Assembly: GCA_030390025.1 (NCBI GenBank)
Contig: CM059432.1
Location: 27,220,001 to 27,284,000, forward strand
Origin: Squalus acanthias
Lineage: Eukaryota
Direction of reading: 5' to 3'
DNA: 64,000 bases
A program made the translations under genes and the position numbers. Every line of letters starts with the position of its first letter. Within the stretch, counting starts at the first letter, position 1. The notes below the pieces were generated by a model that searched no databases, was not told the origin of the DNA, and saw only the letters and a list, made by a program, of their open reading frames with translations. This document shows positions 50,132-61,659 of the stretch, piece after piece.

Positions 50132-51881
50132 TGTAAGGGATTCCCTGACCCTGCGTGTCTCGTAGCCTGTGAGATTCACGCGGCTCTGTGCAGCCTGTAT
50201 GTCAGTGCGGGTCTAGGCCTGGTTGCCTGTTCTGGTCTCCAGCCAGTCTGGGAACACTAGACACACCTGTGAGTGGTTCGAATCACTCTCCCTTACGGTT
50301 CTAGACACTGGACTTAGATGCGAGAGCAGTAATGGAGATAAAACTCATGTAGACTTGGTTTGAATGGTACGAAATGGAAAATCTTTATTGCATGATACTT
50401 AAAATTATGAAATACATGTCATAAGCACAGATTAATGACAGTACAATCTTACAAACAGTTATATAGTCGATCTTAGGGAAACGAGGAACGAACGGCACAA
50501 CGTAAATAGGGGCACACATTACAAATATCCTTAATCTTTAAACCCTCCCCTATCAATATCTATCCTAAACTAGCTTCGTAGGATCTCGAGACTCATGCTC
50601 ACCACTCGTGATAACTCGGAGAAATTCCGAATAGCTGATCGGATGTCTTTCACCGCAGCACCCACGTGTCGGTCAGGAGATCTCCTGGTCCCACTTGTTT
50701 ACTTGCTTCTGCTGCTTCGGCTAGTAGGCTGGACCGTCTGCTGTGATGAAGACCTGTGTTGGCTGGTTTAACAGGTACTCTTGGAGCACCGTTGTCAATA
50801 TCATTGATACGATGTGTTTTCACGTTCCAACCTCCTTAGACACAGTCCCGTTATCGTCGATGCAATATGTTTTGTTAGAAGTTTTAAAGAAGAAAACTTC
50901 CTGGCGAGGAAAACTTGGCTGATCGACCTACAGGCGCGGTCGGGATTTACTGACCGTGGCGATGGATATGGTCTTCTTCTCTTCTCCTCTCATCTCATCT
51001 CATCTCATCTCATCTCGGGCCTTTGGTTCCGCTGCCAGTTACCAACATAGGTCTTCGTTACGCGACACGAGGTAGATCCGTACGGATCAGAAAGTTCAAC
51101 AGTCTTTTCAGAAGAGGCAACAGGCACGCAGAAGCCCAACTACGAGTACACAGGAGCAGCCACGAGGTTACGAATCGACCGGATAAAACACAGGAGCAAG
51201 CGAGCGAACGCAGGAGCAAGAACAAGAGCACGAGGCAAGAGGCAAGAGAGCGAATGGACGGTTTGGAGCCTGCAATTATAGTGCAAAAATCTTCCGTTTC
51301 CCGCCCAACTATAATGTCCATTCTTTTGTTTAGGGTTTGGCGCCCAAATGTCTTGTATGGGTGATCTCCGTTCTTAATGGGTTTCGGGGCTACTCATGAA
51401 TGTTTGAGTACCTGTTAATATTTCTCCCATTGTTAAATCGGTCGGTGTTCTCCCTGGAGGGGTTTGGGGCTTCCAAGTGTCATGTATAACTACCTGCTAA
51501 CGGCTCTCTCATCGTAGAGTCGTTGGGAGTTTACATATTAATGTCCTTTGGATGGGCCCTTGATTACTCGGTACAATGGCTTTCCTTTGTACCTGGGAGA
51601 CCGATTCCAGTATCTATGTTTATACTGCAAACCCATAATGTCTCGTGTATTATCTTCACTGTGCTGAATCGTTATCGATCTTGCACAAATGTTTAATGGA
51701 ACGCCATCTTGTCTGCCTGTTGAAAAGTCCAGAATGTTCTGTCACGAGGTGCGGCGGCCATTTTACAGGCTGCTTGTGTCCAATTTAAACCTGCCAGCAT
51801 TCTGCTGAAATAAAAGCTGTTTGAACGAAACTTTGTGTTTTCTCCTTATTAATCAAATCGCGATATATTGCGAATTCTACA
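50132..51881 (-). repeat. 3' LTR (1750 bp)
   Basis: Direct repeat of 59910-61659; ends TGTA...TACA; minus-strand AATAAA at 50384-50389. Confidence 0.97.
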
Positions 51882-51893
51882 GTCCCTCCTGTT
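51882..51893 (-). promoter_or_regulatory. Polypurine tract (AACAGGAGGGAC)
   Basis: Purine-rich stretch immediately 5' of the 3' LTR on the coding strand. Confidence 0.7.
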
Positions 51894-52304
51894 GATGCGA
51901 ATAACTCCGCTTATCGTATCAAAAATCACAGTGGTGAGCAATCTTATCTCGATTTCACTCCGAATCCAGTAAATTAATCCCATAAATTTTAACTTAACGA
52001 GGGTCTCTGTGTCGTCCTTATTTCCCAAGAAAATCACATTTTATATCACCGTAGGCATCATTTGCCCTTAAACTTACACCACTTGTTTTCCTTCCCGGCG
52101 TAACCAGGCCGATACCTCACGCATCACCTGTATATTTGTCTTTTATTCAGGGAAAGGAAAAAACAAAACCCAAAACCAAACAATCAACACCATCACCAAA
52201 ATAAACAAATCCCAACTCTTAAACATGTCGAGTTTCCAACGTATTTACAATGAGTACAAACTTCCGCGGCGCACGCGGCGAGCGGGAGTGGCGCCATTTT
52301 CCGA

Positions 52305-54176
52305 TTACACGGTGCTCTCATCGTGCACGCGCACGTAACGTTCTCGCCACTCTCCCGTGTTTTCATGCTTGGTGAGGCGCTTGTCTCTTTTACAATGTAT
52401 GACCAATAGGTACACTACAATAAACACTTGACAGACGACTAAAATGTGGGAGGCTATTCTGATCCATGAAGGCACTTCAATATTCGTGAACAGATTCCAC
52501 CACGGTGGAACCACTATGTCCAGAATGTCTGTTCCTATTTCGACAGTTTTCTGCTCTAATGTATAAAAATGTTTCTGTGATACCGCGACGGCTTTCAGAA
52601 GTTTGGTTAAATGCTCAGGGAGAGGGGGAATGAGGTATCCAAAATGCGCGACAAATCGCTGCAAGTCGGTGAAATTCTCTTTTACTGTGAGATGAACAGT
52701 GGATGGTTCAGGGATTGGGATAATTCGCTGTTGTGCTACTTGAACTTCAGCCCTGGGTTTAAAACAGAAACTGCTGTCACTCACCGGACACCGGCTACGG
52801 TTTCCATGCTGGTAGTGTTGCGCTGCAGTGGTAACACAATATGTTCCACCCCCGATGTATGCTACCTGCGGAGGCACATGATCTTGTGCCATTGCCTCCA
52901 TGGTGCAATTCATGGACTTGGCGCCAGCCGTTCTGAACCCGCACTGTGGTGTTAAAAAGGCACTCAAGTGCTGGGGGCACAGTATTATGTGTGCTCCCCT
53001 GCCACGACAACCAGAGAGATCTGTACCTGTCATCGTTTGCTCCCAGCGGATGACGTAAGGTGGAACTGCTGCATAACGAATGTGGGCTCCCCCCTGAATG
53101 ACACCAATGTTCTCTACCCGATACACCGGGGCGGGCTTTGCTGTGTTGCCCAAAACCGGCATGCGTAATACTATTCCCATAATAGTATGGTTTGAACGTC
53201 CGCAGTCCACGGGGACTGGGTAAGCTTCTGAAGCTAGCCTGAGCTGGCACGGACTTAATGCGTTCTGAAAAGGGTGGAGCGCCCGCAGGTGTTTGTTACT
53301 TATCCAGGACGGAACCAAACCTTGTTTTAAATCCTCCAAATTACTGCGGCCCTCGCCCAGTAACCACGCCCCGTAAAGCACGCACACCTCGTTCTGCGCA
53401 GCTTGATCGGATGCATTCCGATCTTCCCTGATCAGGGCATTTACCGTACGCGCATGTTTCTCCAGCTCTGCTATAATTTCCTTTAAATGGAGAGTCATGG
53501 CTTGGTCCTCGTGTAGACCTGACCCTACCACTTTATTCTCATCTGTTAGAATGTCTTTTAACTGTGTTTTTAAACCATTAATCTGGGTCTGCAGCTCCAC
53601 ACTGTCTAGAGCGTTGACCACAGATGTCCCTGTGTTAAAAGCAGTGAACGCATCGTTCACCAAACCCCTTCTTTGCCTCCCTACTTGATCCAAAACTTCC
53701 TGCGGTGCGGTGTACAAACTTGTCTTATCAATTTCTGCAAAATCAAACTCGTAAAATTGTCTGAACATCTTGGTCAACAGGACCTGATACAACTGTTCCG
53801 TCTTTTTGGGGCACCACTCTGGTAACCGTACCTCAGTGAGATTTAAAATCACCGAGGCCACCGCGTAATGTACCCCCTGAAATAGTATCTGGTCTGTGGG
53901 GACCAGTACCAAACCGTTCCCGGGTCCCTTACTAGCTTTAGGGCACCCTTCTTCCTCAGCTAGAACCACCGGAATCGTGGGCGGGGCTTTGCGTGGGCGC
54001 GTAATGAGTTCAGTGGCATTTACTGGGATCGGGGAGAATGGGGCTCCGCACCCCCTGGTGCTCGCATCCCACCTCATCCCCTGTCCGTTATCCTGCCATT
54101 GATTAATAAAAAAATATGGAGATGCCTTTGGGGCAAACGTACTTTGACCCCCACATACATACATAAATCCCCTCAT
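52305..54176 (-). CDS. env: Envelope / class I fusion glycoprotein, C-terminal part (furin site, fusion peptide, heptads, Cys-rich domain, TM)
   Basis: RQRR|GLVNDAFTAFNTGTSVVNAL; heptad LQTQINGLKTQLKDIL; Cys-rich central block; Trp-rich juxtamembrane region; TM ILVVCQVFIVVYLLVI; no signal peptide in this frame. Confidence 0.88.
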   Translation of the reverse strand: MRGFMYVCGGQSTFAPKASPYFFINQWQDNGQGMRWDASTRGCGAPFSPIPVNATELITRPRKAPPTIPVVLAEEEGCPKASKGPGNGLVLVPTDQILFQGVHYAVASVILNLTEVRLPEWCPKKTEQLYQVLLTKMFRQFYEFDFAEIDKTSLYTAPQEVLDQVGRQRRGLVNDAFTAFNTGTSVVNALDSVELQTQINGLKTQLKDILTDENKVVGSGLHEDQAMTLHLKEIIAELEKHARTVNALIREDRNASDQAAQNEVCVLYGAWLLGEGRSNLEDLKQGLVPSWISNKHLRALHPFQNALSPCQLRLASEAYPVPVDCGRSNHTIMGIVLRMPVLGNTAKPAPVYRVENIGVIQGGAHIRYAAVPPYVIRWEQTMTGTDLSGCRGRGAHIILCPQHLSAFLTPQCGFRTAGAKSMNCTMEAMAQDHVPPQVAYIGGGTYCVTTAAQHYQHGNRSRCPVSDSSFCFKPRAEVQVAQQRIIPIPEPSTVHLTVKENFTDLQRFVAHFGYLIPPLPEHLTKLLKAVAVSQKHFYTLEQKTVEIGTDILDIVVPPWWNLFTNIEVPSWIRIASHILVVCQVFIVVYLLVIHCKRDKRLTKHENTGEWRERYVRVHDESTV

Positions 54177-54657
54177 CCGGTTCCCACCATTTGTCCCAAC
54201 AGACTTTCACTTGTCCGTCTGTCCCCGTAATTGTCCGATGGGTATTATTACCCAGTCGTTCCCACTCGACCGAAGAGTTTCTCATAGTTTTGCTCAGCTT
54301 TCGCAGCCACCACCATCGGCTCAATGGGACATTCCCACTACAGGTCAAACAAATCCGTTTGCCGACGGTGACGCTGATCCTGGGTGCGATGATCCTTACT
54401 TTGGGGCACATTAAAGAAGTCTCTTTGTAGGCGAACCCCGATGTGCTGGAATACTCCGTTGAGTTCGTTCCCAGCCATCCTGGCCACCTTCCCTTGTGGA
54501 AATAGGTGCTGGTCCCCTCTGCCTTTCGTCTTCCGGTCCCATCCACCGCGATGGGGGCCGTGTCCCCAGAACATCCAAACACCACGACATCCTTGGTGTG
54601 GCCTCGATAGGCCAATCCACATCCGATTGCCACGAGCAATACTAGAATTCGTTCCAT
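54103..54657 (-). CDS. Signal peptide and Ig-like domain protein (probable Env N-terminus; ORF open from 54816)
   Basis: MERILVLLVAIGCGLA; ICLTC...RWWWLRK...DEGIYVC; N-glycosylation sequons NST, NSS and NNT; AGGATGG Kozak context just after a CACAG splice acceptor. Confidence 0.75.
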   Translation of the reverse strand: MERILVLLVAIGCGLAYRGHTKDVVVFGCSGDTAPIAVDGTGRRKAEGTSTYFHKGRWPGWLGTNSTEYSSTSGFAYKETSLMCPKVRIIAPRISVTVGKRICLTCSGNVPLSRWWWLRKLSKTMRNSSVEWERLGNNTHRTITGTDGQVKVCWDKWWEPDEGIYVCMWGSKYVCPKGISIFFY

Positions 54658-54837
54658 CCTTCCTTGGTTCCTGTGATCAGATAGAATGAGGTAGCCAGCC
54701 TCGCAAAAGTCTCTGGCTTTTGTGAAGGGTGAGCGGGTCCCCTGACCTCGCCTCACGTAAACTTCAACGTTTGCTGAATAGACTTCCTCTAAACCTAGCC
54801 TTAAAACTCCCATCATTTTATCGTTTTCTGTTAAAAC

Positions 54838-54940
54838 ACTACAAACTTAGCCTTATTAAAACTTAAAACTTAACCTTGACCCTACAAACTTAAACTTAAC
54901 CTTGAACTATAAACTTAAAACTTAAAACTAAAACTTTACA
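54838..54940. repeat. Degenerate AAACTT/AACCTT low-complexity repeat between pol and env
   Basis: Direct reading. Confidence 0.75.
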
Positions 54941-54967
54941 GTGCCGCCCGTTCTCAGGGCGGCCCCT

Positions 54968-57900
54968 TTAAATTCTGAGAAGGCTGCTGCGAGCTCTTCC
55001 CGACGGTGGGAGGGCACTGACCCTTCCCTCTGATCTGCCGCAGCCTGTTACTGCTGCGATGTGGCCTGTCTGTACCCGGGTTATCTTAACCTGAAGTCTA
55101 CGCCTTGGGGCAGTCTGGGGACATGACCACATCCTCCTGGGCTGGGGTTCTCTACTTGACCTACGGGGAGTTGCTATGGGCGGGGGTTCCGTGACGGACG
55201 GACCGGGTTCCGAGACCTCCAACGGGATGACCTGGGGTTCCATCACAGTCGCCGGCTCCGCCTCCGCTGACTCCGCCTCCCTAACCTCGGGGCTGGCAGT
55301 TCGTGGCTCCGCCCTGCTCGGCCCAGCAGGCGGCCCTTCACTCGTGATCTCTGCCTCCCCTGAGGACTGGACGTTCAAGGCGGGCGGCCACATCTCTGGG
55401 AGCCACATTGGTACTCTCTGTGCTCCTATAGCGGCTGGCCCTGCCTCCTCTAGCTCCTCCCTCCTGTCCTCGGGACCTGCAGCTTGTGTGTCCACCCTGT
55501 GTGGATCTCTACCTATCGGCCCCATTCCCCCCAGACCGTTCCTCAGGAACCACCCGTCATCATCACTATGCTCATCTGCACTATCCTCATCTGACCAGGG
55601 TACCCTGGGTTCTTCGTCATCTAACCCCCAACTCCAGAAAAACGCTGCATGATCGTCCGGGATGTCCCTTCCTCTGATGCAAGCTGCTATGCCTGCCTGT
55701 GTGCCTTGTGGTCCTACCTGGGGCTGTGCTTTCCCATTGGCGGGATTTACCCCTGTAGTTTTCCCCTGCGCACCCGGCTGGTACAGTTTGCATTGGTTTA
55801 TGTGGAACCACTTAGTGCGCCGAGGCACTTTTACGGCGTAAACCATGGGACTCGCCTTGTCTACAATGTTGTAGGGTCCCATATACAGTGGTTCCAGACT
55901 CCCTACTCTGGCGTAGTTTCTGACCATGACCTGGTCTCCTACTTCCCACTCCCGCGTTTTGCGGGGTTCCAGCAACAAGCGATTGCCCTGATGCTGCCTT
56001 CCCATGTTCCCAGCCGCCTGCTCATAAACTTGCTTCAGGCGCTCCAAGAGAGTCTGGGCGAACTTGTCCCTGCTTATCTCTTGAAGCTGACCCTCAGTGA
56101 GCACCGGGGCTAGCACATGGGTGGGGGTTCGCATGAGCCTGCCGGTCATTACCTCGTGCGGGGAGTACCCCGTACTTTTTGACTGACTGGCCCGGACCCC
56201 CATGAGGACTAAAGGCAGAACTTCCGCCCATTTTTGGGGCGAGTTCCTAGTTTCTTTCCTCAATTTCTCCTTCAGGGTCCGGTTCATACGTTCAACAATC
56301 CCGGATGACTGGGGATTGTGTGCTACGTGCCACTTCCCTTCAATGCCCAAAAGCATGAGGGTGTTCTGCATCACCTGGCCGGTGAAATGACTCCCTTGGT
56401 CTGACTCCACGAAACGGGGGAGTCCCCACCGCGAGAACACTTCCCGGACCAAGATTTTTGCTGTACCCAGTGCCGTAGCTGTTCGACACGGGAAGGCTTC
56501 CACCCACTTGGAAAACACATCCACCAGGACGAGGCAGTACTTATAACCTCCCTGGGTGGTGGGCAGGGGTCCTATATAGTCGATCTGTATCGACTGCCAT
56601 GGTCCCTCTACCCTTCTTACGTGTCCCATGGGCACCTTCCTTTTCTGGGGGTCTGGGTTGTTTGCAGCGCACACAAGACAGTTTGCACAGAACTCGCGGA
56701 CTTGTTCCCTGAGCCCTGGCCACCATCCCGCTTGCTCTACCCGTTGCCAGGTAACCTCGGGCCCGGGGTGCCCTGCCCCTGGTCCCTCGTGAGCCAACTG
56801 GAGGAATTCCCTCCTGTGCTGCTGCGGCACAACCCACTGCTCCCCGCGGAACAGCATGCCTTCCTTAACTGAGAGGGTTGCCGTACTGTACGGACCTTCT
56901 ACCTGCCTCCCCTCAGCAATCGTTTTTAGGACTGCTTTTAGGGCGGGATCCTGGGCTTGGACGGTCTTAAGGTCTAGGGGCAATGCTACCCTGGTGTTCC
57001 CGGTATTCCCGTCCCCGCCTCGGACCGCTGCTATGGGTCCGGTCCTATAGGGGTTCCAGAAAGTGCCGTCGCGGGCACCCTCCCTGGCTAGCGCATCCGC
57101 CTGCCGGTTGCCCTCCCCACGGGGCTCTGTGGAGGAGTGAGCTTTCACCTTATGGATGAAAATCTCCCCTTCCTCCCCTACTGCTGCTGCTAAGATCTTT
57201 TCCAGCAAGGGCTTCACCGTTAAAGGTCGCCCGTCCGCGGAGGTGTATCCGCGGCGGGACCAAATGGCCAGGTATTCCGTACACGAATTGCAGGTGAACA
57301 TACTGTCCGAGCAAATCGTGTATGGGGTTGGGAAAATGTCTGGGTGGGTCACCACGTACACCACGGCAGACAGCTCAGCCTGCTGCGCGCTCATGGTGCT
57401 AGGGAGCTTGATCGCCAGGGCAAGGTCTGCCGCAGGGTCATAAACTCCACACCCTGTGAGTCGCTCGCCAGCAGACACTGTGCTAGATCCATCAACATAA
57501 ATCTCGCGCCCAGTGGGATGTATCCCGGCCCGTAAACCTATGTTGACGTCCCACACCCCTTCCACCGAACACCGGTGGGCTGTACCGGGGTATACCAAAT
57601 TGGCCGCAAGCCTGGGCTCGCAAAGACCTTTTACTCTAAGATCCAACTGGGAGAGAAGAAGGGTCCAACGCGCAATGCGTGCGCTGCTTACGGTCCCGTC
57701 TTTAATCCTCCCATCCAGAAGCATCTTAGTTGGTGTGTGATGTGTGAGGAGAGTGATGGGAGAGAGCCCTGTGAAGATCGCTGATCTTTTCACAGCCCAA
57801 TGCGTGGCTAAAAGGTGCCTTTCGCAATTGGAAAAACTTCTCTCCACATCCGTTAATACCCTGGATGAATAGACAACCGGCCTCAGCTTGCCGTGACGCT

Positions 57901-59905
57901 CTTGGAGCAGCACGGCGCTTAAGCTGTCTCCGCTGGCAGCTACCTCCAGGAAAAACTCCTTCCCCCCATCTATGGCCCCTAAGGCTGGCGCGGTCTGCAG
58001 ATCCCTTTTTAACTTCTCGAAGGCTGCTTGGCAGCCCTCGTCCCAAAGCCACTCCACCCCCTTATGGAGGAGTCGGAGGAGCGGCGCCGCTGTGGCCGCA
58101 TAATCTTCGATAAAATCCCTGCAGTAACCGGTCAGTCCCAAGAAGGACCTCACACCCCTTACGTTGTTGGGAATCGGTAATTCTTGCACCGACTCCCTCC
58201 TTGCTTTGTCTATGGCTCTTTCCCCAGCGCGTAGGGTCAGTCCCAGGAATTTTACTTCCTGCTGACCGATACGTGCTTTCTTTGGGTTTACTTTAAAACC
58301 CTTTCTCGCTAACAGCTCCAATAACTCGTCCAGTAGTGGTCCGTGCTCCTCCCTTGAGTCCGTAAATAGGAGCAAATCATCCACATACTGTACTATCTGA
58401 TTGGGCTGACTAAACTCCTTTAAACTTCCTGCCATACACTGATGAAAAATACTGGGGCTATTGTGGAAACCCTGTGGCAAACAGTTCCACGTGTACTGTT
58501 GCCCTCTGAACGTAAAGGCAAACTTGTACTGGTCCTCTCGCCGCAGCGGGATGGACCAAAAACCGTTCGAGATATCCAGCACCGTGAACGTGGTCGCGGA
58601 CGCTGGGATGCTCCCTATTAGGTCAGCAACTGCTGCTACTGTGGGCGCGCAGGCGGGAATGTTACTGTTAAGGACTCTGTAGTCCACCGTGGCTCTCCAC
58701 GAATTATCCGGCTTCCTAACCGGCCATAATGGGGAGTTCACGTGTGTGGCTATCGGCCTCAACACGCCCTGCTGCACCAAGGAAGACATTGCTGTCTCCA
58801 TATCGGGTTCTGCTTCTTTGGGGAAGTTATACTGCTTTTGGGGTCGGGTCATGGGGTCCCCATCTACGCTGACCTCAAACCCGACCACTCTCCCACAATC
58901 GTGCTTGTGGGTTGCAAACGCGTGCATATTATCTGACACGTACGTTTGCATGTCCGTTGGGACATCTGCGACCATAAGCCTGAGGTCGTAGCCTCCGGAT
59001 GGCTGTACGGTACACAGGACCCCCGGTTCTTCCCCACCGTTTCTGCTTGGGCCCCTTTTAATACCCGTTACTGGATACAACGATCCCTTTTCTTCTTCCT
59101 TTTCAATGGGCTTTTTCGTTCCTTCCATTGCTTCCTCCCTAACCCAGGTTTCTGAGTAGCTGGGTGGCGCGGAGGGCGCAGTGGCTACTACTTCTTCTGC
59201 TTTACTTGGTGGGGATTTTCTAAATCTCTCATTTACTAGCGGCTGGTGCGCCGACGGATTGATAAGGCACACCATGCCGTTCGCATTATTCACGGCCTTT
59301 TTGAGGCTCTCTATCTCCCTTTGGCAGGCGCTATGGTCGGCTCCCTGAAACTTATCCTCAAGGGCCAACTTATACGCCGACCTAACCCCCATTAAGCTCT
59401 CTTCTTGAGTTCTTATCTGGGCAGCTTGGCGGTTGCATCTTTCCTTTAACCTACTCTCATTCAATTTTGCTTCAGTGACCTGGCACTCGAGATACTCTAT
59501 CCTTGTTTTAAGGTGACTGGAGACTTCCTGGCTTTCCTGGTGTAACTCATTTAAATTCTTAATGAGCACCTCCCCTCCAGAAACCTTCTCCTCCATTTCT
59601 CCCTCTAAATGGCTGATTCGAGCTGTTAGCGCTGTAATGGTCTGGTTTGAAATCTGAACCTGCCTTTTGTAGCACATAAGCCAGACTGCTTTCTCAACTG
59701 TCTTTTTATGTTCCTTACTATCTGTCCACCTTTCAGCTGCCTCTAGTGGGCTCTTATCCGCTAACAATTCACTTATCCACTTCTTAGTTAGATTAACCTT
59801 TCCAAACACATAATCCGCTATCTTTTCCTGCATAACATTTCGTACAGTCATTCCAAAATCTAACACACTACCCTCTCGCTGCCAGTGTCCTGCCGCGGTC
59901 GCCAT
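54968..59905 (-). CDS. pol: Single Gag-Pol ORF: coiled-coil Gag N-terminus, RT, tether, RNase H, integrase, acidic/Pro-rich tail
   Basis: NSPLWPVRKPD, LDISNGFW, LPQGF, YVDD (58376-58387); tether VAAS...CERHLLA; RNase H YVDGS/QAEL/CSDS/HKVKAH/GNRQAD; integrase HHCC, IDY/SDQG/VERMN and GPY. Confidence 0.95.
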   Translation of the reverse strand: MATAAGHWQREGSVLDFGMTVRNVMQEKIADYVFGKVNLTKKWISELLADKSPLEAAERWTDSKEHKKTVEKAVWLMCYKRQVQISNQTITALTARISHLEGEMEEKVSGGEVLIKNLNELHQESQEVSSHLKTRIEYLECQVTEAKLNESRLKERCNRQAAQIRTQEESLMGVRSAYKLALEDKFQGADHSACQREIESLKKAVNNANGMVCLINPSAHQPLVNERFRKSPPSKAEEVVATAPSAPPSYSETWVREEAMEGTKKPIEKEEEKGSLYPVTGIKRGPSRNGGEEPGVLCTVQPSGGYDLRLMVADVPTDMQTYVSDNMHAFATHKHDCGRVVGFEVSVDGDPMTRPQKQYNFPKEAEPDMETAMSSLVQQGVLRPIATHVNSPLWPVRKPDNSWRATVDYRVLNSNIPACAPTVAAVADLIGSIPASATTFTVLDISNGFWSIPLRREDQYKFAFTFRGQQYTWNCLPQGFHNSPSIFHQCMAGSLKEFSQPNQIVQYVDDLLLFTDSREEHGPLLDELLELLARKGFKVNPKKARIGQQEVKFLGLTLRAGERAIDKARRESVQELPIPNNVRGVRSFLGLTGYCRDFIEDYAATAAPLLRLLHKGVEWLWDEGCQAAFEKLKRDLQTAPALGAIDGGKEFFLEVAASGDSLSAVLLQERHGKLRPVVYSSRVLTDVERSFSNCERHLLATHWAVKRSAIFTGLSPITLLTHHTPTKMLLDGRIKDGTVSSARIARWTLLLSQLDLRVKGLCEPRLAANLVYPGTAHRCSVEGVWDVNIGLRAGIHPTGREIYVDGSSTVSAGERLTGCGVYDPAADLALAIKLPSTMSAQQAELSAVVYVVTHPDIFPTPYTICSDSMFTCNSCTEYLAIWSRRGYTSADGRPLTVKPLLEKILAAAVGEEGEIFIHKVKAHSSTEPRGEGNRQADALAREGARDGTFWNPYRTGPIAAVRGGDGNTGNTRVALPLDLKTVQAQDPALKAVLKTIAEGRQVEGPYSTATLSVKEGMLFRGEQWVVPQQHRREFLQLAHEGPGAGHPGPEVTWQRVEQAGWWPGLREQVREFCANCLVCAANNPDPQKRKVPMGHVRRVEGPWQSIQIDYIGPLPTTQGGYKYCLVLVDVFSKWVEAFPCRTATALGTAKILVREVFSRWGLPRFVESDQGSHFTGQVMQNTLMLLGIEGKWHVAHNPQSSGIVERMNRTLKEKLRKETRNSPQKWAEVLPLVLMGVRASQSKSTGYSPHEVMTGRLMRTPTHVLAPVLTEGQLQEISRDKFAQTLLERLKQVYEQAAGNMGRQHQGNRLLLEPRKTREWEVGDQVMVRNYARVGSLEPLYMGPYNIVDKASPMVYAVKVPRRTKWFHINQCKLYQPGAQGKTTGVNPANGKAQPQVGPQGTQAGIAACIRGRDIPDDHAAFFWSWGLDDEEPRVPWSDEDSADEHSDDDGWFLRNGLGGMGPIGRDPHRVDTQAAGPEDRREELEEAGPAAIGAQRVPMWLPEMWPPALNVQSSGEAEITSEGPPAGPSRAEPRTASPEVREAESAEAEPATVMEPQVIPLEVSEPGPSVTEPPPIATPRRSSREPQPRRMWSCPQTAPRRRLQVKITRVQTGHIAAVTGCGRSEGRVSALPPSGRARSSLLRI
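59887..59904 (-). promoter_or_regulatory. Primer-binding site complementary to tRNA-Arg (UCG-type)
   Basis: TGGCGACCGCGGCAGGAC, 5 nt after the 5' LTR; its complement GTCCTGCCGCGGTCG-CCA matches my recollection of the vertebrate tRNA-Arg(TCG) 3' end. Confidence 0.85.
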
Positions 59906-59909
59906 TTTC

Positions 59910-61659
59910 TGTAAGGGATTCCCTGACCCTGCGTGTCTCGTAGCCTGTGAGATTCACGCGGCTCTGTGCAGCCTGTATGTCAGTGCGGGTCTAGGCCTGG
60001 TTGCCTGTTCTGGTCTCCAGCCAGTCTGGGAACACTAGACACACCTGTGAGTGGTTCGAATCACTCTCCCTTACGGTTCTAGACACTGGACTTAGATGCG
60101 AGAGCAGTAATGGAGATAAAACTCATGTAGACTTGGTTTGAATGGTACGAAATGGAAAATCTTTATTGCATGATACTTAAAATTATGAAATACATGTCAT
60201 AAGCACAGATTAATGACAGTACAATCTTACAAACAGTTATATAGTCGATCTTAGGGAAACGAGGAACGAACGGCACAACGTAAATAGGGGCACACATTAC
60301 AAATATCCTTAATCTTTAAACCCTCCCCTATCAATATCTATCCTAAACTAGCTTCGTAGGATCTCGAGACTCATGCTCACCACTCGTGATAACTCGGAGA
60401 AATTCCGAATAGCTGATCGGATGTCTTTCACCGCAGCACCCACGTGTCGGTCAGGAGATCTCCTGGTCCCACTTGTTTACTTGCTTCTGCTGCTTCGGCT
60501 AGTAGGCTGGACCGTCTGCTGTGATGAAGACCTGTGTTGGCTGGTTTAACAGGTACTCTTGGAGCACCGTTGTCAATATCATTGATACGATGTGTTTTCA
60601 CGTTCCAACCTCCTTAGACACAGTCCCGTTATCGTCGATGCAATATGTTTTGTTAGAAGTTTTAAAGAAGAAAACTTCCTGGCGAGGAAAACTTGGCTGA
60701 TCGACCTACAGGCGCGGTCGGGATTTACTGACCGTGGCGATGGATATGGTCTTCTTCTCTTCTCCTCTCATCTCATCTCATCTCATCTCATCTCGGGCCT
60801 TTGGTTCCGCTGCCAGTTACCAACATAGGTCTTCGTTACGCGACACGAGGTAGATCCGTACGGATCAGAAAGTTCAACAGTCTTTTCAGAAGAGGCAACA
60901 GGCACGCAGAAGCCCAACTACGAGTACACAGGAGCAGCCACGAGGTTACGAATCGACCGGATAAAACACAGGAGCAAGCGAGCGAACGCAGGAGCAAGAA
61001 CAAGAGCACGAGGCAAGAGGCAAGAGAGCGAATGGACGGTTTGGAGCCTGCAATTATAGTGCAAAAATCTTCCGTTTCCCGCCCAACTATAATGTCCATT
61101 CTTTTGTTTAGGGTTTGGCGCCCAAATGTCTTGTATGGGTGATCTCCGTTCTTAATGGGTTTCGGGGCTACTCATGAATGTTTGAGTACCTGTTAATATT
61201 TCTCCCATTGTTAAATCGGTCGGTGTTCTCCCTGGAGGGGTTTGGGGCTTCCAAGTGTCATGTATAACTACCTGCTAACGGCTCTCTCATCGTAGAGTCG
61301 TTGGGAGTTTACATATTAATGTCCTTTGGATGGGCCCTTGATTACTCGGTACAATGGCTTTCCTTTGTACCTGGGAGACCGATTCCAGTATCTATGTTTA
61401 TACTGCAAACCCATAATGTCTCGTGTATTATCTTCACTGTGCTGAATCGTTATCGATCTTGCACAAATGTTTAATGGAACGCCATCTTGTCTGCCTGTTG
61501 AAAAGTCTAGAATGTTCTGTCACGAGGTGCGGCGGCCATTTTACAGGCTGCTTGTGTCCAATTTAAACCTGCCAGCATTCTGCTGAAATAAAAGCTGTTT
61601 GAACGAAACTTTGTGTTTTCTCCTTATTAATCAAATCGCGATATATTGCGAATTCTACA
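59910..61659 (-). repeat. 5' LTR (1750 bp)
   Basis: Direct repeat of 50132-51881; the only difference seen is C51730 versus T61508. Confidence 0.97.
61029..61125 (-). promoter_or_regulatory. Putative LTR core promoter
   Basis: TATAAT (61053-61058) 29 nt before a pyrimidine-rich GCTCTCTT start; CGGAAG (ETS-like) and TTTCCCGC / TTTGGCGC (E2F consensus) just upstream. Confidence 0.55.

Follow-up and report, generated by a model that had tools for sequence, protein, structure and literature searches.

The window, a stretch of 64,000 nucleotides of the Squalus acanthias genome, carries on its minus strand a provirus (50132-61659) whose envelope gene, env, is broken at a run of seven Ts (T7; 54108..54114). 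The extra base was probably gained when a polymerase slipped by chance on the homopolymer in one proviral copy, and is unlikely to be part of a programmed switch. The frame break is a feature of single copies and not of the loki-like family to which the provirus belongs, and a one-base slip to T7 is no more than chance, given that ~1-3% of copies have slipped at the 6-nt runs of env. The normal product of the family is a continuous Env of 783 aa, in which a probable Ig-like head is joined to an F-like fusogen. The slip in the T run would have occurred during one of the last rounds of replication, or after insertion, and either reverse transcriptase or a host polymerase may have been the slipping enzyme. 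The copy in the window would give at most an anchorless fragment of 184 aa, with no sign of selection for the fragment.

The provirus is bounded on the minus strand by a 5' LTR (59910..61659; TG...CA) and a 3' LTR (50132..51881), each of 1,750 nt. The pair differ by one substitution, at 51730, and by no indel, although the longest homopolymer in them is a single run of 5. Because the LTRs differ at only this base and the element is flanked by a 4-bp target-site duplication, the insertion must be very recent. The env frame opening at the ATG at 54657 runs for 184 codons (54103..54657, minus strand) and ends TAT TAA just past the T7 run, which falls in env codons 182-184, exceeds by one base the run length shared by 98.6% of sister copies and, read from 54114 to 54108, is the only run of six or more Ts in the gene. 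This ORF corresponds to a truncated N-terminal Env, with a hydrophobic N-terminus, a probable Ig-like domain and no transmembrane (TM) segment; the run and the anchorless 184-aa ORF described in the original prediction are both present in the assembly. The remainder of env lies out of frame on the same strand (52305..54107; 600 codons) and would encode an ectodomain resembling paramyxo- and pneumovirus F, a furin-type RQRR site (53667..53678; Env residues 327-330) and a predicted TM segment (52398..52454), the most hydrophobic 19-mer, at Env residues 735-753. A downstream ORF of 623 aa had been claimed; a frame-shifted ORF does exist, but it measures 633 aa from stop to stop, with 600 codons of Env. 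The claim of a fused 783-aa protein with signal peptide, furin site and TM agrees with what is found in unbroken natural sisters, whose Env is 783 aa long, begins with a hydrophobic stretch, has RQRR at 327-330 and enters a TM segment around residue 735.

The original prediction had proposed comparison with other genomic copies and had named a continuous frame in most of them as the outcome that would count against it. When the whole genome was searched with a pattern that allows a gap of any length at the run, and that leaves uncounted any copy with substitutions in its anchors, 1,653 copies were matched at the site and 1,630 of these (98.6%) were of frame-keeping length and continuous there, with 11 longer and 12 shorter. 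Longer and shorter runs were symmetric (11 vs 12, p=1.0), and the longer ones had gained one base in ten copies (T7) and two bases in one. In the best 40 of 1,851 DNA matches the window measured 501 nt and the other 39 copies 500 nt, and in 29/29 sisters that were fetched the one-base difference from the window was located at the run. The largest contig was sampled for the first 45 frame-keeping copies listed on it; env was unbroken, at 783 codons, in 27 of them and broken elsewhere in 18. Four truncated copies inflate the indel list behind this tally, which was used only for single events and for the ORF tally. In one frame-keeping copy translation would end at the identical 184-codon stop because one base has been gained in a G4 run, 54 nt further upstream, from which it follows that this is merely the first stop in that frame, and several copies yield the same 184-codon ORF through independent accidents. 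Loss of the env frame in a single copy out of more than 1,600 is ordinary decay and of little significance. A caution to be drawn is that, where a homopolymer splits a frame close to the end of a domain, the result may mimic filovirus editing until the sister copies are counted.

The run itself is poorly conserved. Only A or T was present across it in 644 of the 1,630 frame-keeping copies, and in the other 986 (60%) it was interrupted by C or G, nearly all of the listed changes being silent changes of a Phe codon. The commonest, in 896 copies, was a different letter at the last position of the run, which was C in every listed row and again silent for Phe. In older subfamilies 30/30 loci had at most three Ts at the site and never two adjacent Phe codons, these loci being the 30 that scored best among 150 matches to a distant relative. 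Four database relatives (including two from skate and one from sawshark) are continuous in one frame across the site, some of them being partial or chimeric gene models. For 27 intact copies dN/dS, calculated pairwise over non-independent pairs, came to 0.28 upstream of the site and to 0.088 and 0.057 downstream. Selection has therefore kept the env frame continuous, as dN/dS points to purifying selection in one frame on both sides and the relatives read through.

Copies with longer runs were scattered over a tree of the env segment from which the run had been masked. The 11 copies required 10 parsimony steps on a tree of 91 rows, compared with 8-11 for shuffled labels, and their constraint to a single clade cost 389 log-likelihood units, both tests being run after the removal of six rows that were truncated or interrupted and whose tails were misaligned. 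The longer runs have thus arisen about ten times independently. The nearest copies to that in the window, at 7 differences in ~2,250 columns, are without the longer run, and 23 differences separate it from the closest copy that has one. Two longer-run copies are mutual nearest neighbours. Length change was found in 21/665 copies with an uninterrupted run versus 2/988 with an interrupted one (p=4e-7), a contrast that may be somewhat overstated as shortened runs were classed as uninterrupted by outcome. A run of six Gs elsewhere in env (53089..53094, minus strand) served as a control homopolymer and gave 22 gains, 22 losses and 3,057 unchanged copies (1.4% slipped), one of 23 'longer' matches having been discarded as it was not element sequence; the count suggests that the family has more than 3,000 env copies. 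The T run slipped in 3.2% of copies, ~2.2-fold more (p=0.004; p=0.035 for gains alone), and is somewhat more slippery than G6 with the same two-way behaviour. The original prediction had allowed for a simple mutation or a homopolymer error, and it is this alternative that the sister counts and the symmetric, run-dependent slips support. Frameshifts in homopolymer runs are a typical error of HIV-1 reverse transcriptase according to the available part of a review (PMC3185545), and the slips here are like those of retroviral reverse transcriptases in that one-base changes recur in both directions and depend on an uninterrupted run. As far as that part goes, the review differs in treating fidelity in vitro and in cell culture, mainly of HIV-1 reverse transcriptase, whereas here either reverse transcriptase or a host polymerase may have slipped, or the change may be an assembly error.

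An error of sequencing or consensus in the homopolymer, with an unbroken env at the true locus, is possible but less likely. It would account for the one-base changes in both directions at both of the 6-nt runs tested. In addition 7/12 shorter-run copies were on high-numbered, mostly small contigs, as opposed to 6 of the best 40 matches, and this enrichment suggests that some of the run indels are assembly errors. None of the 24 contig pieces listed (of 97) from independent runs with 100% likeness spans T7. Contigs assembled from four runs over 53700-54700 had the one-base-shorter form at 54108-54109, and in two runs presumed to be RNA this form made up all of the contig depth at the site; such contigs are not assignable to a locus and those from the four runs drop rare variants, so that this form is given no weight as evidence. 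Against an error are the position of 10/11 longer-run copies, that of the window included, on large contigs, the lack of any indel in the LTR pair (though with the run content given above) and the two longer-run copies that are mutual nearest neighbours, which fits inheritance of a real slip. A chance slip in the provirus thus remains the preferred reading of T7, and the notion of a functional genomic state has to be judged beside it. The original prediction drew an analogy between programmed +1/-2 slippage to two products and the sGP/GP editing of filoviruses. In such a state a secreted product would be the default and editing or +1/-2 slippage would give the fusogen. In the available text of PMC5009743 the unedited form of the Ebola GP gene, giving the soluble product, is the genomic default and accounts for 70% of transcripts. 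Common to both is a glycoprotein gene in which a homopolymer separates a soluble N-terminal product from a fusogen anchored in the membrane (PMC5009743, in part), and here too there is a run of seven bases, present in ten copies, with an immediate stop and an anchorless product with a signal-like N-terminus. The difference is that Ebola genomes normally carry the split state (same source and extent) whereas here 98.6% of copies are in frame, 60% of those have an interrupted run and the older subfamilies are without it. The genomic default of this family is the full-length Env; T7 occurs in only 10/1,653 copies, these are polyphyletic and deletions are equally frequent. Such a functional state is accordingly very improbable. 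At the level of the family a programmed split was tried as an explanation and is refuted by 1,630/1,653 copies in frame, by the unconserved run and by the polyphyly. The features looked for in a programmed slippage were absent, in that a split frame was not the norm among the 1,653 copies (11 longer), the homopolymer was not conserved either among the 1,630 frame-keeping copies (986 interrupted) or in the older loci (30/30 with three Ts or fewer), and a propagated split lineage was not found in the tree (10 steps for 11 copies; 389 log-likelihood units for a clade). The claim of programmed, filovirus-like slippage is therefore contradicted by the continuous frame of 1,630/1,653 sisters and by a run that is conserved neither in the family nor in its older subfamilies.

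Two further proposals would give some role to the short product. One is that unbroken young copies undergo a low level of hairpin-aided -1 ribosomal frameshifting at Phe-Phe, giving a minor secreted Ig-only product of which T7 would be a version fixed in DNA by chance; a -1 slip in unbroken copies would lead to the same 184-aa product. If true, this would be recoding in a retroviral env to give a soluble decoy, a counterpart of filovirus sGP, but it is unlikely. A canonical -1 slippery heptamer has the form X-XXY-YYZ, with a stimulatory structure 5-9 nt downstream. A predicted RNA hairpin (54010..54102, minus strand) lies directly 3' of the run at a suitable spacing, starting a few bases past it, and the 98 nt after the run have a folding z of -3.48, a level of -3 being reached by only 2/113 other env windows and -2 by 12. 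Its mean z was -2.1 over 14 loci of three subfamilies. Both Phe residues were present in 27/27 intact young copies, with a -1 frame stop one codon past the site, and the commonest silent change (896 copies) would leave re-pairing of tRNA-Phe possible. However, the first base of the heptamer breaks the X-XXY-YYZ rule, and a conserved heptamer of this form was found neither in the young subfamily nor in any of 30/30 older loci. Around 90 copies (986 minus 896) have a change that would block re-pairing. Adjacent Phe codons were found in 0/30 older loci, yet the hairpin is predicted there, in subfamilies without the T run; the -1 frame stops at once in 23 of these 30 loci (one subfamily and non-independent). 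Compensatory change was seen at 2/16 predicted pairs, and the pairs lie mostly on conserved Trp, Gly and Pro codons. An env window 240 nt upstream folds equally well (mean z -2.0), and the product would stop within a predicted strand of a low-confidence model. A literature search for recoding in loki-type env found none reported, although the supplements of PMC7947760 or the bioRxiv preprint (10.1101/2023.10.26.564294) may describe such Envs, and one for recoding of retroviral env to give a soluble decoy returned general reviews with no such case. In the other proposal, which is very improbable, the host would have retained the truncated env because its soluble, Refrex-1-like product blocks a receptor. 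Truncated secreted Envs of endogenous retroviruses act in restriction in cats and primates, and as in Refrex-1 and its kin a truncated env here could give a secreted N-terminal fragment (PMC9245640, in the part available), the 184-aa ORF retaining the hydrophobic N-terminus and Ig-like core. Those are expressed and tested restriction factors from gamma-type Envs (PMC9245640, to the same extent), whereas this is a very young copy known from its sequence, with 1 mismatch per 1,750 nt of LTR. The same ORF has been produced in several copies by independent accidents; fixation, expression and selection of the locus would be hypothetical and receptor binding by the Ig-like head is putative.

The head of the Env probably contains an Ig-like domain, as judged from sequence matches and models. 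Its probable core (54157..54396, minus strand; residues 88-167) gave a weak match to Pfam Ig_3 (E 0.073), and Ig_3 was matched at E <=0.1 in 15/24 aligned relatives, the best at 6e-4. Atlas neighbours of the 184-aa ORF were V-set and Ig clusters, with V-set at 0.91-0.93. The fold model of the N-terminal part had a mean pLDDT of 36, and its structure matches were nearly all Ig domains with none reaching E 0.001; the model is too poor for fixing the border of the domain. The original prediction placed the break exactly at the end of the Ig domain, a placement that finds no support, as in this low-confidence model (mean pLDDT 36) T7 falls within a predicted strand (residues 180-189), and conserved residues lie beyond the break. 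W187 and C203 are conserved in the skate and sawshark relatives, which are the closest named relatives of the family, and W196 in 3/4, all of them C-terminal to the break. The Env of an unbroken sister, modelled with a mean pLDDT of 61, gave Foldseek matches to the F proteins of paramyxo- and pneumoviruses, the best being hPIV3 F (E 1.5e-11), while a sequence-only search of the PDB with Env had no match below E 1. More distant F-like Env relatives from a bamboo shark, two frogs and one more assembly are single ORFs of 677-749 aa, each with an N-terminal extension ahead of the F-like part. One of the frog relatives belongs to a cluster of 16 members. One distant relative is labelled Ig-like at its source and another matches V-set weakly, so that an Ig-like head may be widespread.

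The provirus is loki-like, judged by its gene layout, its dual RNase H and the predicted F-like fold of its Env. It has gag, pol and env between LTRs, and a modelled F-like Env with a cleavage site and TM. The gag-pol ORF (54968..59953, minus strand) covers reverse transcriptase (RT), tether, RNase H and integrase, the Pol domain matches being RT_RNaseH_2 at residues 637-724 (the tether) and RNase_H at 817-960. In the accessible text of PMC7947760 lokiretroviruses likewise have LTR-gag-pol-env, tether plus RNase H, an Env with signal peptide, RXXR and TM, and a paramyxo/pneumovirus F fold. Set against them, as described in the same text, the family here is distinguished by the probable Ig-like head of its Env and by having its closest named relatives in skate and sawshark. 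A term search of the main text of PMC7947760 found no shark, cartilaginous, Chondrichthyes, immunoglobulin or frameshift. Parts of PMC9040795, PMC11089739 and bioRxiv 10.1101/2023.10.26.564294 provide general context for loki-type and F-type Envs.

The copy in the window is doubly defective, with a dead gag and protease in addition to the break in env. Its gag-pol has a private in-frame deletion of 1,359 nt (59020-59039) at a short imperfect repeat, the junction of which is matched exactly once in the genome. The deletion joins N-terminal Gag to RT, so that Gag lacks its C-terminal part and the protease is missing; in a sister copy the region deleted here has weak matches to a zinc knuckle and an aspartic protease. 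In the Gag part of the ORF (54968-59953) PSAP and PPSY motifs are adjacent, downstream of a long coiled-coil-like N-terminus, and these resemble retroviral late domains. The bases directly after the 5' LTR (59886-59909), where the primer-binding site is expected, overlap the first gag ATG, and past the stop codon of env there is a similar AAAATGGCG word (52278-52299). In a sister copy gag and pol share a frame with a single stop codon between them, and the sequence suggests that in the loki-like family Gag-Pol would be made by stop-codon readthrough and not by frameshifting. Many copies are without RT-RNase H-integrase (18 loci listed) and have kept env, several with an unbroken env ORF. The loss extends over the window equivalent of ~59020 down to 55736 or 55800, with two recurring breakpoints, and such copies are likely to be non-autonomous subfamilies copied in trans. 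Some copies of the family are in tandem or clustered, for example near 115.47-115.53 Mb of contig C1, and three loci contain a second piece of the element.
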